DNA from: Candidatus Nanoarchaeia archaeon
GTDB lineage: Archaea > Nanobdellota > Nanobdellia > Pacearchaeales > GW2011-AR1
Direction of reading: 5' to 3'
Assembly (NCBI GenBank): GCA_035282925.1
Contig: DATEUW010000021.1
Location: 1 to 48,394 of the forward strand
Length of the DNA: 48,394 nucleotides
Shown: positions 15,001 to 21,000 of the stretch, piece after piece
How positions within the stretch are numbered: position 1 is the first letter of the stretch
Layout: the number at the start of each line of letters is the position of its first letter
Program-made: the position numbers

Positions 15001-18000
15001 TTGCAATCATTCTTGGAGCTTATTTCACCGTTGTTGTTTCCATGCTTCCTCTCCTGTGGGCGGGTGCAGGTCTCCTGAAAGGTTTTGCCTTCACGACGTT
15101 GATAGGAATAACTGCAGGGGTTTTCATCACAAGGCCGGCCTTTTCAGACATGATAAGAAAGATGGAGGAACAAACTTATTTTTAGAAAGGCGTTTCATAA
15201 AGCATAAAAACGAAAAAATGCATTTCTTGTCATGAAGGACCAATTTTCCCAGGGAGGAAGGGATATAAAAGATATCTGGAGAAGAATAAAAAACCGTGAT
15301 TTTTCAGGAAACACAGGTCTCGTAGTAAAGAACAGCCTTTATCAGTTTTCAACAGGACTCGTTGCGAAAATCGGAGCCTTAATTTTTACAGTAGTTATTG
15401 CCAGGTTATTACTTCCAGAGCTTTTTGGCCTTTATAGCCTGGCACTATCCACTATCTTGCTCTTTGTTTCTATTTCTGACCTGGGTATAAATCAATCGAT
15501 AATAAGATTTATTTCCAAATCATCATCAGATAAAAGAAAAGAGAAGGCAGCAGCATACGCTTATTATCTATCCAAAATAAAGATAATCTTTACTTTTTTG
15601 GTGGCATTTGCTTTGACAATACTGGCAAAATTCATCTCTCAAAATTATTACCAAAAACCAATATTTTACGCTTTAATTGCCGGAGCACTATATGTTATTC
15701 TGGCAGGGATATCGAGCATTTTTCAATCATTTTTTCATGCTATTAACAATTTTAAGGTTCCCTTTTTTAAAGAAATTTTCCTCCAGGTTTCAAGACTTTT
15801 TTTAATCCCTTTGTTTATACTCATATCCTTGGCTAATTTTTCCTATGAAGTTGTTTCACTGATAATGATTCTTTCTCTAAGTGCCTTATTCCTGTTAACA
15901 ATAGTTTTTTTATTCTTTTTTGTAAGAAGGCTGGATTTTCTTAACCAAACACCAAAAAGACTGTCAAAGAAAGAGAAAAAAAGGGTAAATAAATTTACTT
16001 TTGAAATGCTTTTACTTGGAGTCGCGGGTTTAATTATAGGATATATTGATATAATCTTTTTGGGTAGGTTTGTTGACCCAGAATACATTGGGATTTATCA
16101 GGCGGCATTAAATTTTGCAATCTCATCCATCCCTTTAATTAACTTTTCAACTGTCCTATTTCCATTATTCAGCAAAATTTCCGGGGACAGGCTGGAGAAA
16201 GGATTTAATAGATCGTCTAAAATTACTCTTTTAGTATCTGCTTTTGTTTTTACAGCCACCTTTTTGTTATCCCCCCTAATAATTAAAATAGTTTATGGAT
16301 CGGCCTATATAGAAGCTATAACTTTGTTAAGAATCTTAGCTCTGCTTTCTGTCTTTCTTCCAATGTCTTCCCTATTCAGCTCCTATATAATTGCAAAAGG
16401 ATACCCCAAATTAGTGACTAATAGTCTAATCATCACAGCTGGAATTTATTTTATCATAAGTTATTTTTTAATAACTTATTTGCTGAAATTTGGTCAGAGA
16501 TATGCAATTATCGGAGCATGTATCGCTCTAGTAATGAGCAATTTTTTCTATATGATTGTTCTTCTGTTCAAAGCCAGGTCTTTAAAAAAGGCCTAAGTAT
16601 TTAATAATTTTCCCTACACATTCTTCGACAGATTCTCTTTCAGTTTCTATTATAATTTCTGGATTTTCAGGCGGTTCATAGGGGTTTTCTTTTGCAACCC
16701 CTATAAAATTTTCTATTTCTCCCGCAAGAGCCCCTGCATAAAGGCCTTTAGTGTCTCTTTTTGTGCACTCATCCATGCTGCACTTTACATAGACTTCAAT
16801 AAAACTCTCCCCCAAAATTTTTCTTGCTTCTAATCTGCTATCTTTGAAGGGAGAAATTATTGGTACCAAGATAAAATCATAATCTTCTTTCTCCATTAAG
16901 CAAATATCAGATATTAATTTATTATTTTTTTTAATATCTTCTGGACTAAAATCAAGATGCTTATGGACACCTGATCTTATCTCATCCCCATCAATTATTT
17001 TAATTTTTTCCCCTCTTTCTTCAAGCTTTTGCTTTAGTTTATCAGCAATTGTTGTTTTTCCGCTTCCAGACAGCCCAGTAAACCACAAAATCTTATTTTT
17101 TACTTCTACAAAAACCCTTTCACCATTCTTTATTTTTCTGATTATTAAATCAGAGATTTCAGGCCTCATGAGCCACTCCGGGGGTCTTACCCCATTTTTC
17201 AGCATCTCTCTTGCCTGTGTTCCCGAAATAAACTTTTTGAATTCTTCAGGATAATCTATGAATTCCGAGTTATGAAAATACCTTTTTTCTAAATCAGAAT
17301 AAAAAACTTCATCAAATTTTATAATCTCAATACCCAACTCTTCCTTGCTAAATTTGTCAAAGATTTCATGGGAGGCTTTTACTTGATAAAAATTCCCAAC
17401 ACCTGTATGGTCTCTCCCAACAATAAAATGAGAACATCCAAAGTTCTTTCTAATGAGCGCCGTAAATACCGCCTCCCTGGGACCCCCATATCTTGGATAC
17501 GCAGTAAGCGTACCAAAAACAACTTTTGAATTAGGATAAAATTCTTTAACCATTTTTTCGTATGAACTTATTACCACATCGGTCTCAAAATCTCCTTCTT
17601 TCTTCTTTCCAATTACTGGATGAAGGAACAATCCATCACAGAAATTTCTTTTTAAAGATTCTAGCTGGATAAATTCATGGCCCCTGTGTATTACATTTCT
17701 GGTATGGAATCCTACTACCCTCTTCCAACCCCTTTCAGAAAAGATTTTTCTTGCCTGTTTTGGAGTCAATTCATGAATTTTGTAGGCGGAACTCCTTTTC
17801 TTTAACAAAGTAATCTTCCCCCCCAAAAACCAATCTTTATTTTTCATAAACTGTATGACTCCGGGATGGTGCAAATCTGCTGTTCCAAATATCTTCTTTG
17901 CTGCCTCTTCTTTATCTACACGATACATCTCCGACAGGTGTAAAATTCCATAAACCTCTTGATTTAAAGAGAGCCCAATATTTTCGCCTTCTTTCAAATC

Positions 18001-21000
18001 CTGTTTTGTTTGTTCATTTACAGATAATACTATTGGGATAGGCCAGACCAACCCATTAGAGAGTCTCATATTTTCAACAACAGAATAAAAATCTTTTTTC
18101 TCCATAAATCCTTCTAGAGGACTAAAAGCCCCAGTAGCTATCTGTTCTAAATCCATTAAATCTTGTTCATTAATTTCAATTGTTTTTTTAGGGATGTCTT
18201 TCCAGCTAGAATCAAATCTTTCAACTAATCTCCCCCCATGGGGTTCTATTAGAAGAGTGGGGGTGCTATCTAAAAAGAGATAATTTGTTTCTTCTATCTT
18301 ATCTATGACCCCTGCTTTTTTACTTTTGTTAAGGAATTCAAATTGATTCATTATACTAATTAAAGTATTCACTGTCTCGATGGGGTGTTGACCCACTGCC
18401 GTTTCTTTTGTTAAAGCAATGCCTGTAGCACCATCCAAAATGGTGTTGACAATATCATTAACTTCTGCCTTACTGGGCTTTAACTCGAAAGCCATATGCT
18501 CCAGAGTATTCGTTGCAATGAATGCTTCTTTCCCCATATCCGCTACCTCCCTTAAAATGAACTTTTGGATAAAAGGAATTTTTTCAAATGCAACTTGGTT
18601 ACTTAAATCTCCTCTATCGATTAAAATGCCGTCAGAAGCTTTGGCTATCTCAAGAAAATTATCTAAGCCTTTTTTAGATTCTATCTTAGAATAAACAACT
18701 GCTTCAGGATATAATTTCTTGAATTTAACTACCTGTTCCGAGGACTCCATAAAAGATAAGGTGAAATGTAGAAGCTTATATTTTTTAGCTAATTCCACTG
18801 CTGCATAGTCTTTCTTGCTGAAAGGTGGCAGACTAAATGAAGGGCTATCTATTTGAACCGCCTTATTTCCTCCTATCTTCCCCTTTATGATGACTTTGCA
18901 TAAAACATATCCCTTGTCCAATGTGCTCACATCAAAAACCCTAAGCAATAGAGAATTAAAGTCTATTGAAACTAAATCCCCCTCCCGTAGTTCTTTAGCT
19001 ATTCCTGCTGGGTTCAAGAATAAATTCTCCTGATTGCAGTTTATGTTATTATCATGAATTTTTACAGTTGCTTCTTCTTCAAAAAATATTTCTTCAGTAT
19101 TCCCCGATCTCACTTGGCATCCTTCTGTGTCCAGTATTATCGGAACCCCATACCCTAAAAGGTCTTTTATTCTGTTTTCTATATCCTCCTCTTTGGTGTG
19201 GGATAAATTAATTCTGAAATAATCAACTCCTCTCTCTTTTAATTTACCCAAAACTTCCTGAGAATTTGATCCGGGTCCAATAGTGCATATTATTTTAGCT
19301 ATTCTCATTAAAAACCCTCATAATTGTAGAATTTAAACTTTATGATACTCAAGAGCGCTAAGTTTTCGTGGCTTGAATAATGGTATTAAGGGGCTCTTAT
19401 TCTTTAATTTTCATTCTTGAATATACAAACAGGTTTATTCTCATCCAAAAGTCTAAACCCTTCGTCAATTAGCTTACCCCTCAAATATGGGATATCAAAG
19501 TCAATTATTAAAAAATTACAATATTTTTTCAGCAACTCAATCTCACTTTCAATTAATTCTTCTTCATTCCCTTCAATATCACACAATAGATTAAATCTCT
19601 TTATTTTATAAGTTTTCATAATTCCCTTTAATGAGATTGCCTTTACCCTGACTTTTTTCCCTTGGACTTTTCCCCGAACCGATGAATTTCCCAAGCCAGT
19701 ATCCGAAATAATAAAATCAATTTTCCCTTTCTTTTTTGAATAAACTCTATTTAAGGGGATGATGTCTTTTTCGTTGTTTAGTGCTAAATTTCTATTTATT
19801 GTTCCCATTAAGGATGGATTTCCTTCAACTATTATATGTTTTTTTGTATGTTTGAATTTTCTCGCTAGCAAGGAAACAAATCCAATACATCCCCCCAAAT
19901 CAATAAAATCCTCTCCAGTTGGCAGGTATCTTAAAATTAAATCTCTTTCTGGGTCTTCCCAATGCTTTCCAAACCTCACCCCAAAATGGGAAAACCTTTC
20001 CTTAACCTGTGAGTTTTCAAGAGATAATTTAATTCCCAACAAAGTAGTTACTGGTTTCATAAATAATTTTATTCTCATAAATTATCATTTATCGAACGCA
20101 TATTTAATTTATTAATCTAACACTCCCATGATACCCCATTATTTTAACCAGTGACTAAGGTCTTTACCAATAAATTTACCAGTCACTAAAATTTCTTTCT
20201 TAAATCTATTATTTAACTTTTTTCTAATATCCGGCTTTAAAGAATATTTTCTTTGTCTTTGGGTTGTAAAATTTATAGCCGATTTTCTCATCTTATTAAT
20301 TTTCCCTTTTGGGATAATTGATTTTAAAAAAAGCTTGAATCCGGTGGGCAATTTCTCAAGAACCCATAAAAACCATTTATTTTTTAGATCCCTTGATTTA
20401 TTGTGTATCTCAAATTTAATTGGATGCCTATTATCGATTCTAAGAAAATCACATAACACGCTGTAAACTTTTTCAGGATTTTTTTCCATTTCGTCTAAAA
20501 AAATTATATTCACATTTTTCTTACCGAAGGCATCTAAATAATTTTTTAAATTCCTTGAAAATTTAAGTTTCTCCCACATTTTTTTAAGGTCTTCAGTATT
20601 CAAATTAATAGACTCTTCAAAAGGAATGTTGTTAGGGATATCCCCGTTTTTATAATAGGAATATGCTATCTCCATAGGATGTCTTAACAAAATTATTATT
20701 TTTGCTTCAGGATTAAACTTTTTTATTTCCTTCGGCGCTGTTTCGGACCAAAAATAATGGGATGCTTCACCCAGTATCTTTTTATTGCCAGCTTTTGCAA
20801 AAAGGGAGAGGTATTTCTTTTCATTTTTATGGAACTCTTTAAATGCAGGATTTGGCTCCTCTCCAAAAAAGTTAGGTCCTTTTACTTCAGACATGAAGAC
20901 ATCCGGATGCTGTTTAAGCCATTCATATAATGTAGTTGTGCCACTTCTCCCGGCACCCACAATGAACAAGTTTGGTCTCCTCATTTTTTCTTATAAACAT

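Follow-up and report, generated by a model that had tools for sequence, protein, structure and literature searches.

The question raised by this locus is what a sulfotransferase gene and a gene for the synthesis of its sulfate donor, PAPS (3'-phosphoadenosine-5'-phosphosulfate), are doing at the distal end of an archaeal operon for protein N-glycosylation. The window analyzed here, a stretch of 48,394 nucleotides of contig DATEUW010000021.1 (assembly GCA_035282925.1) from a DPANN archaeon (Candidatus Nanoarchaeia archaeon), carries on its minus strand a 281-residue open reading frame (ORF; 20139..20984) and, downstream of it, a gene for a 908-residue fusion protein (16582..19308), both at the 3' end of a long run of genes that includes aglB. 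The original prediction, which we follow up here, held that these two genes supply PAPS locally and sulfate a glycan in its lipid-linked or protein-linked form. Our analysis makes it probable that they constitute a sulfation cassette, complete in itself, with which a glycan operon anchored by AglB ends on its 3' side, and in which PAPS synthesis would be assisted by phosphoenolpyruvate (PEP) and a lipid-linked glycan would be sulfated, flipped across the membrane and transferred by AglB.

Pfam searches of the 281-residue protein resulted in matches above cut-off to both Sulfotransfer_3 (PF13469; 57.2 bits, cut-off 27) and Sulfotransfer_1 (PF00685; 51.6 bits, cut-off 22); these were its only Pfam matches, with no sulfatase/alkaline-phosphatase-like core among them. 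The top sequence match in the PDB was 3rnl_A (E = 5.4e-28, full length), an uncharacterized bacterial sulfotransferase of Alicyclobacillus acidocaldarius, followed by NDST1, matched in its N-sulfotransferase domain (E = 6.6e-11), and then by 3-O-sulfotransferases. An AlphaFold (AF2) model, built like the column counts given below on 66 homologues, adopted the PAPS-sulfotransferase fold with a mean predicted local distance difference test score (pLDDT) of 93.2 and a predicted template-modeling score (pTM) of 0.87. Comparison of this model with the PDB using Foldseek returned E-values down to 1.6e-17, with 3RNL ranked first (template-modeling score, TM, 0.72/0.82), the heparan-sulfate sulfotransferases NDST1 and 3-OST-1/3/5 occupying ranks 2-21 (TM 0.61-0.68), and tyrosylprotein, CurM-type and cytosolic sulfotransferases at lower ranks. 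The original prediction had proposed a hidden Markov model search and a structural model as checks and had named another kind of P-loop protein as the outcome that would count against it; that candidate is ruled out because all 50 of the best fold matches are sulfotransferases.

The sequence elements expected of a PAPS-binding enzyme are also present. The 5'-phosphosulfate-binding (5'-PSB) loop spans residues 7-23 (FIVGAGRSGTTTLYEWL; 20916..20966, minus strand), and its core, GAGRSGTTT at residues 10-18, is strongly conserved, with G10 found in 66/66 homologues, G15 in 64/66 and T16 in 65/66. Position 13 of this loop is Arg in the window protein; among the homologues it is Lys in 45 and Arg in 20, with Arg in nearly all of the close DPANN relatives, so that this exchange reads as a conservative, clade-wide substitution and not as a lesion. 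The 3'-phosphate-binding (3'-PB) segment, RHPMEIAYS at residues 101-109 (20658..20684, minus strand), contains an R101 and a P103 that are invariant in the alignment and an S109 that is kept in 56/66 homologues, and the R-x7-S spacing is retained. Glu73 (20766..20768, minus strand; Glu in 62 and Asp in 4 of the 66) lies in a family motif, GEASxxYL, that has the same spacing as FEKSANYF of NDST1, and its position may be that of the catalytic-base Glu of the heparan-sulfate sulfotransferases (NDST1 Glu642, 3-OST-1 Glu90). The clade of the window protein carries a one-residue deletion at this point, which accounts for an off-by-one phmmer alignment at E73. Taken together, the Pfam assignments, the 3rnl match and the column counts confirm the 281-residue ORF, together with the 5'-PSB loop and RHP...S segment originally noted in it, as a genuine predicted PAPS-type sulfotransferase.

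The protein appears to be soluble, as neither a signal peptide nor a membrane segment was found in it (the maximum Kyte-Doolittle value over a 19-residue window was 0.96), while residues 191-250 are strongly basic, with 16 Lys or Arg against 3 Asp or Glu. The basic segment and the lack of a hydrophobic stretch would fit a cytoplasmic enzyme acting at the membrane surface. It shares with NDST1, 3-OST-1/3/5 and 3RNL the fold (TM 0.61-0.72) and the 5'-PSB and 3'-PB elements, and its Glu73 may correspond to the catalytic base of the heparan-sulfate enzymes; the characterized members of that group use carbohydrate acceptors. Sequence identity to NDST1, 3-OST and 3RNL is only 16-23%, however, and the window protein is soluble, with no Golgi stem or anchor, and differs from the heparan-sulfate enzymes in the Arg for Lys exchange in the PSB loop, in the basic 191-250 segment and in its setting in a prokaryotic operon. 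With 16-21% identity and TM 0.61-0.68 to NDST/3-OST, and no glycosaminoglycan-synthesis context, we assign it neither orthology to these enzymes nor heparan specificity.

The 908-residue protein contains more than the PAPS synthase that had been recognized in it. Pfam, PDB and NCBIfam searches and an AF2 model agree on a fusion of a pyruvate kinase (PK) barrel, a PUA_2/ATP sulfurylase unit and an adenosine-5'-phosphosulfate (APS) kinase, all on the minus strand: the PK A+B barrel at residues 2-313 (18370..19305; PF00224, 190.8 bits), PUA_2 at residues 354-503 and ATP sulfurylase at residues 514-724 (17137..18249; PF14306, 168.8 bits, and PF01747, 246.2 bits), and APS kinase at residues 739-887 (16648..17094; PF01583, 150.8 bits). 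Thus the sulfurylase and kinase domains of the fusion that had been predicted are both there, and the N-terminal PK barrel had been overlooked. NCBIfam models place the ATP sulfurylase domain above cut-off in TIGR00339 (sopT; 360.1, cut-off 322.95) and NF003166 (437.4, cut-off 387), and the APS kinase domain above cut-off in TIGR00455 (apsK; 170.8, cut-off 138.7). The sulfurylase motifs HxxH (as HRGH) and GRDHTG are present, as are an intact P-loop (GLSGSGKTT) and DGD in the kinase domain. That this domain is degenerate or allosteric, like the APS-kinase-like domain of the fungal ATP sulfurylases, is ruled out by its intact P-loop and DGD and by the TIGR00455 score. The best PDB match is 2gks, the bifunctional ATP sulfurylase/APS kinase of Aquifex aeolicus, whose alignment with residues 375-905 runs from one end to the other (E = 8e-97); bacterial pyruvate kinases match residues 2-330 at E-values of about 1e-43 to 1e-44. 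The full-length AF2 model has a pLDDT of 89.6 and a pTM of 0.76, with the domains confidently predicted.

Compared with 2GKS and with the fungal and animal PAPS synthases, the order of sulfurylase followed by kinase is the same and the catalytic motifs are intact; the window enzyme differs from synthases of the 2GKS type in having an extra N-terminal PK barrel of 340 residues and in occurring in glycan clusters instead of cys regulons. The whole-protein PAPS-synthase equivalog NF004040 scored 447.7 against a cut-off of 669, the architecture differing by the extra PK domain. Relative to the pyruvate kinases of E. coli (PykF, 1PKY) and S. aureus (3T05), the A and B domains and the positions of phosphoryl transfer and of the Mg2+ and K+ ligands are kept, whereas the allosteric C-terminal domain is replaced by the PAPS synthase and DTKGPEIR has become DTEGCQVR. 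No Pfam match to PK_C was found in the 908-residue protein, and it is because this C-terminal regulatory domain is missing that the PK equivalog TIGR01064 scored 241.9, under its cut-off of 306.4. Among 32 diverse fusion proteins, R32, N34, S36, D60, T61, R67, E210, D234, T266 and E302 of the barrel are invariant and K208 is kept in at least 90%, a pattern of catalytic and metal-ligand positions which argues that the PK domain is probably under selection as an enzyme. An inactive PK-like scaffold was rejected as unlikely on the same grounds.

A role for the PK domain is suggested by work on the enzymatic production of PAPS. PAPS synthesis in vitro required that ATP be regenerated by PK and PEP, since APS kinase is caught in a dead-end enzyme-ADP-APS complex (PMC9885120). 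The fusion resembles such a cascade in natural form. The same activities are combined against the same ADP/APS dead-end inhibition; the in vitro cascades mix separate enzymes, whereas the natural system unites them in one polypeptide or, in a shorter 735-residue form described below, in one operon. The ATP sulfurylase domain of the 908-residue enzyme would make APS from sulfate, and its APS kinase domain would turn this into PAPS; by analogy with the cascades, the PK domain would use PEP to return the ADP released by APS kinase to ATP. Removal of ADP would relieve the dead-end complex and pull the unfavorable sulfurylase step, for a predicted net reaction of ATP + sulfate + PEP -> PAPS + PPi (pyrophosphate) + pyruvate.

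The fusion is not peculiar to this genome. All of the best 120 homologues of the 908-residue protein combine PK with sulfurylase, and they occur in two length forms, one of about 735 residues (PK-Sat) and one of about 910-930 residues (PK-Sat-CysC), in genomes named as Pacearchaeota and Nanoarchaeota and, in the candidate phyla radiation (CPR), as Minisyncoccia, Doudnabacteria, Yanofskybacteria and Pacebacteria. A census in which 241 residues across the PK/PUA junction served as the query against 1.84 billion representatives, with clusters at 50% identity, resulted in 96 clusters at E <= 1e-30, most of which cover the junction and belong to one or other of these two length classes. A literature search turned up no paper describing a PK-ATP sulfurylase architecture. 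Database names for the fusion vary between "pyruvate kinase" and "sulfate adenylyltransferase", a possible source of error when metabolism is reconstructed; the window protein itself is named "Pyruvate kinase" in UniRef and JGI, from "uncultured archaeon Rifle_16ft_4_minimus_37913".

The setting of the two genes is an AglB-type N-glycosylation cluster. The glycan island occupies 16.5-37.6 kb of the window and is distinguished by a low G+C content (0.31-0.35, and 0.28-0.35 per gene at 16000-34000, against about 0.40 in the flanks) from the core genes on either side, which comprise archaeal ribosomal-protein operons, SecY, SecDF, 5S rRNA and tRNAs. Within it, 18 co-directional genes run on the minus strand from an aglH-like gene (36552..37565) to the 908-residue fusion gene, with spacings of -70 to +95 nt. 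The AglH-like protein is a polyprenol-phosphate sugar-1-phosphate transferase of the Glycos_transf_4 family (PF00953, 109.7 bits), and the gene after it encodes a 967-residue AglB/STT3 oligosaccharyltransferase (33602..36505, minus strand; PF02516, 44.4 bits, cut-off 24.5) with the WWDYG motif, seen as HWWDYGFWVQ in the translation. Between aglB and the sulfotransferase lie the glycan-building genes (20981..33614, minus strand; Pfam and NCBIfam assignments): five methyltransferases, four glycosyltransferases (three GT1/GT4 and one GT2), a UDP-GlcNAc 2-epimerase, a double short-chain dehydrogenase/reductase (SDR; GalE-like plus PseB/FnlA-like), an ArnD-like deacetylase and a FemAB-like protein. 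The start codon of the sulfotransferase and the stop codon of the methyltransferase gene before it (20981..22018) overlap in an ATGA that can be read directly in the sequence (AAAAAATGAGGAGA), and the sole gene between the sulfotransferase and the fusion encodes a methyltransferase of the FkbM family (19404..20078, minus strand; PF05050, 42.6 bits; TIGR01444, 57.8, cut-off 37.7). The junction and the placement on the strand of aglB and aglH, with one gene before the fusion, are therefore as first described. A gene for a Wzx-type polysaccharide flippase (15232..16596, plus strand; PF01943, 100.9 bits) converges on the run, its 3' end overlapping that of the fusion gene by 15 nt. AglB with its WWDYG motif, a phosphosugar transferase, glycosyltransferases and a flippase are thus encoded at one locus. 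Relatives carry other sets of genes at this site, which lies between SecDF and the ribosomal/SecY block, and the island resembles a hypervariable locus of the O-antigen kind.

To evaluate whether the pairing of sulfotransferase and PAPS supply recurs, we compared the window with four loci that carry close relatives of the sulfotransferase at 41-61% identity (L001-L004) and with loci anchored on the fusion (L087-L091). All four of the former are glycan islands beside SecDF in which a PK-sulfurylase coding sequence and Wzx lie next to the sulfotransferase (4/4); a separate APS kinase is found in L001 and L004, AglB lies upstream in L001-L003, and additional Sulfotransfer_1/3 or Sulfotransfer_2 genes occur in L002, L003 and, faintly, L004. 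In L002 the PK-sulfurylase gene is reduced to two PK-only ORFs of 173 and 163 residues (10837-11888 of that locus), with two sulfotransferase genes remaining adjacent; these fragments may represent a decaying module or an artefact of assembly or frameshift. Among the loci anchored on the fusion, a sulfotransferase lies directly downstream of it in a capsule/NeuB cluster of Patescibacteria (L087), a sulfotransferase-like gene lies directly upstream in a Pacearchaeota locus with Wzx, FemAB-like and deacetylase genes (L089), and a further sulfotransferase-like gene lies two genes upstream in a DPANN locus (L091); the remaining two are a capsule/NeuB cluster of Doudnabacteria (L088) and a teichoic-type cluster of Minisyncoccia (L090). 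In L088 an Inositol_P gene of the CysQ family (10748-11569), a candidate PAP phosphatase, lies directly downstream of the PK-Sat-CysC gene and overlaps its 3' end, and it would be a candidate to complete a set for PAPS use and PAP recycling. Overall, intact PK-sulfurylase genes lie in glycan clusters at 9/9 loci (the window, L001, L003, L004 and L087-L091), and at 7/9 a sulfotransferase is found within 8-10 kb. The identity of the sulfotransferase and its recurring synteny in the four close relatives are far beyond chance.

The functional link is strengthened by three independent observations. In another Nanoarchaeia genome (L052) a homologous sulfotransferase is paired with CysD, CysN-CysC and CysC, a non-homologous system of sulfate activation, and in a Methanosarcinales metagenome-assembled genome (L079) a homologous sulfotransferase lies four genes from AglB. 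The third observation is one of background linkage: contigs of GTDB representatives were scanned with the DPANN sulfotransferase alignment and the best 80 loci kept, which were mostly bacterial and of no more than 36% identity (apart from one partial match at 40%), the close DPANN relatives not being among them, and in 19/80 of these distant homologue loci an APS kinase lies within 10 kb.

These observations would fit a scheme in which the soluble sulfotransferase, at the cytoplasmic face, passes the sulfate of locally made PAPS to a sugar hydroxyl (or, less likely, an amine) of an oligosaccharide built on a polyprenol carrier by the neighboring glycosyltransferases. The sulfated and methylated glycan would then be flipped by the convergently encoded Wzx-type flippase and most likely moved to protein Asn by AglB, an N-glycan destination that is suggested by gene order. 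Local PAPS supply and glycan sulfation, as originally proposed, are thus supported by fold, motifs, domains and recurring pairing, and the lipid-linked acceptor is the part of that proposal which we would retain; sulfation of the protein-linked glycan is unlikely, as PAPS occurs in the cytoplasm and the enzyme lacks both a signal peptide and a membrane segment, and sulfation is instead expected at the lipid-linked or nucleotide-sugar stage. In haloarchaea, too, N-glycan sulfation has been inferred to take place on the dolichol-phosphate (DolP)-bound glycan (PMC11980604; PMC3892788).

Sulfated archaeal N-glycans are established, and enzymes have begun to be assigned to them. It had been stated with the original prediction that no PAPS-dependent glycan sulfotransferase was assigned in an archaeal N-glycosylation pathway; Agl30 and Agl31 (VNG1056C and VNG1057C) of Halobacterium salinarum were identified as N-glycan sulfotransferases in 2025, but these belong to the alkaline-phosphatase/sulfatase superfamily, and PAPS is not mentioned, nor an adjacent PAPS synthase described, in that paper (PMC11980604). 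The narrower statement stands, as our literature search found no PAPS-fold enzyme assigned to an archaeal N-glycosylation pathway. In Haloferax volcanii, Agl7 contributes to the sulfation of DolP-hexose (PMC3892788). As in the window, agl30 and agl31 lie within an aglB-anchored cluster, whereas agl7 lies in a separate, AglB-independent cluster; unlike Agl30 and Agl31, the window enzyme has the PAPS-sulfotransferase fold and an adjacent predicted PAPS synthase, and no sulfatase-domain protein was found among the cluster genes scanned. For DPANN, a 2024 review noted uncharacterized PF03567 sulfotransferases in Pacearchaeota and Woesearchaeota (PMC11625862), and our own search of the literature for sulfotransferases in DPANN gave nothing specific.

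Several observations weigh against a cassette dedicated to N-glycan sulfation. Neither a sulfate transporter nor a PAP phosphatase was found on the contig, flanks included; the scan of the rest of the contig for a transporter or CysQ yielded only ribosomal-protein genes, MsrA/B and MgtC. The Lys usual in the 5'-PSB loop is replaced, conservatively, by Arg in nearly all members of this clade. The module is incomplete at some loci, with no APS kinase within 8-10 kb at L003, L089 and L091 and no recognizable sulfotransferase within that distance at L088 and L090. The same PK-PAPS-synthase module occurs in CPR, which lack AglB, in capsule-, nonulosonic-acid- or teichoic-type clusters, so that N-glycan specificity can be ruled out for the cassette as such. 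The PK domain could also be the glycolytic pyruvate kinase of the cell, and sulfation of glycans by this organism is a prediction from its genes.

These points bear on three other explanations. The cassette might sulfate a surface glycan other than the N-glycan, such as a Wzx-dependent capsule- or exopolysaccharide (EPS)-like polysaccharide or a glycolipid, AglB being a mere neighbor; the capsule/NeuB clusters of L087 and L088 and the teichoic-type cluster of L090 speak for this, as do L004, where no AglB lies within 10 kb of the module, and the FemAB-like protein of the window, whose nearest family is the EPS-associated TIGR03019, although its score is below cut-off. We nevertheless consider this explanation rather unlikely, given that the genes leading from aglH and aglB to the sulfotransferase share one orientation at close spacing, with stop and start codons that overlap, that AglB is also upstream in three of the four close relatives, and that no Wzy polymerase or chain-length regulator was found among the cluster proteins scanned by Pfam. 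It is also conceivable that the 908-residue protein acts in sulfur assimilation (from sulfate through PAPS and sulfite to sulfide), in glycolysis as a pyruvate kinase, or in both, and that its adjacency to a sulfotransferase is incidental. This would agree with a DPANN metagenomics paper that assigns sat genes to sulfur metabolism, be it dissimilatory or assimilatory (PMC8091004), with the UniRef and JGI names and with the intact PK catalytic residues. It is hard to reconcile with the finding of no PAPS/APS reductase or sulfite reductase in the window or contig flanks, with a PK that has no regulatory C-domain, with a CysQ-family gene directly downstream of the fusion at one locus and with the confinement of the intact loci to glycan clusters and their frequent pairing with a sulfotransferase, so that we regard it as very improbable.

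Slighter still is the chance that the enzyme is an NDST-like N-sulfotransferase working with the deacetylase of the operon, in which case the product would be an N-sulfo-amino sugar with no sulfate ester. The N-sulfotransferase domain of NDST1 is indeed the nearest characterized relative by sequence and ranks second in Foldseek, and the polysaccharide deacetylase gene (28626-29474) is conserved in L001, L002 and L089. The O-sulfotransferases 3-OST-1/3/5 match about equally well, however, the sulfotransferase is kept without a deacetylase in L003 and L004, and in every case the deacetylase has a FemAB-like gene beside it or close by, a hint that the freed amine is acylated instead. In the window the two genes adjoin each other and span 28626-30487; they are adjacent in L001 and L002 too, and in L089 both are present with two genes between them. 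The pair points to an amino sugar in the glycan that would first lose its N-acetyl group and then receive an aminoacyl or acyl group. Sulfation of a hydroxyl on the lipid-linked glycan remains the reading that we prefer.

Other features of the window bear on the glycan or on its flanks. The double SDR is a 635-residue fusion (23484-25391) of an N-terminal GalE/RmlD-like epimerase or reductase with a C-terminal PseB/FnlA-like UDP-GlcNAc 4,6-dehydratase, which suggests a 6-deoxy-hexosamine in the glycan. In the 345-residue protein encoded directly upstream of the sulfotransferase (20981-22018), the methyltransferase domain is confined to residues 204-323 and the N-terminal 200 residues have no Pfam match; its counterpart in L001 consists of two genes, for a protein of 164 residues with no Pfam match and for a methyltransferase of 180 residues. 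Outside the island, a 5S rRNA gene (minus strand) adjoins three tRNA genes at 12159-12702, two of which (12336-12471 and 12613-12702) far exceed 76 nt and probably contain introns; one was given no anticodon by ARAGORN. A 132-residue ORF at 42653-43051, between the genes for ribosomal proteins L30 and L15, has a counterpart on a near-identical contig with a faint match to GIY-YIG nucleases, so that the ribosomal operon may here have received an insertion of the homing-endonuclease type. Genes for a CstA-family transporter (879-2501) and for a small RRM_1 protein (2579-2923) adjoin the ribosomal block; in archaea, RRM_1 proteins are not often found.

The enzyme class discussed here is already known, and the 281-residue protein is present in public databases as [quoted passage not shown]. 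Three features appear to be new: aglB operons that hold a PAPS-fold enzyme together with a PAPS supply of its own, the fusion of a PK with a PAPS synthase, and the recurrence of this module in glycan clusters of DPANN and CPR. More tentatively, and with more doubt than confidence, we suggest that the PK-sulfurylase(-APS kinase) fusion is a natural PEP-driven generator of PAPS which, together with sulfotransferases, makes up a portable cassette that may have been exchanged between DPANN and CPR, and that sulfated surface glycans are common and have been overlooked in ultrasmall episymbionts. A PAPS-type enzyme with its own PAPS supply in an aglB operon would constitute a second, mechanistically explicit route of sulfation that is directly testable in vitro, and the fusion would provide biocatalytic sulfation with a compact enzyme, ready-made in nature, for regenerating PAPS. 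If the proposal is true, the "sat" and "pyruvate kinase" genes in reconstructions of episymbiont metabolism would represent neither sulfur assimilation, sulfate reduction nor glycolysis but decoration of the cell surface, and the negatively charged, sulfated surfaces that result would be a candidate factor in attachment to the host.

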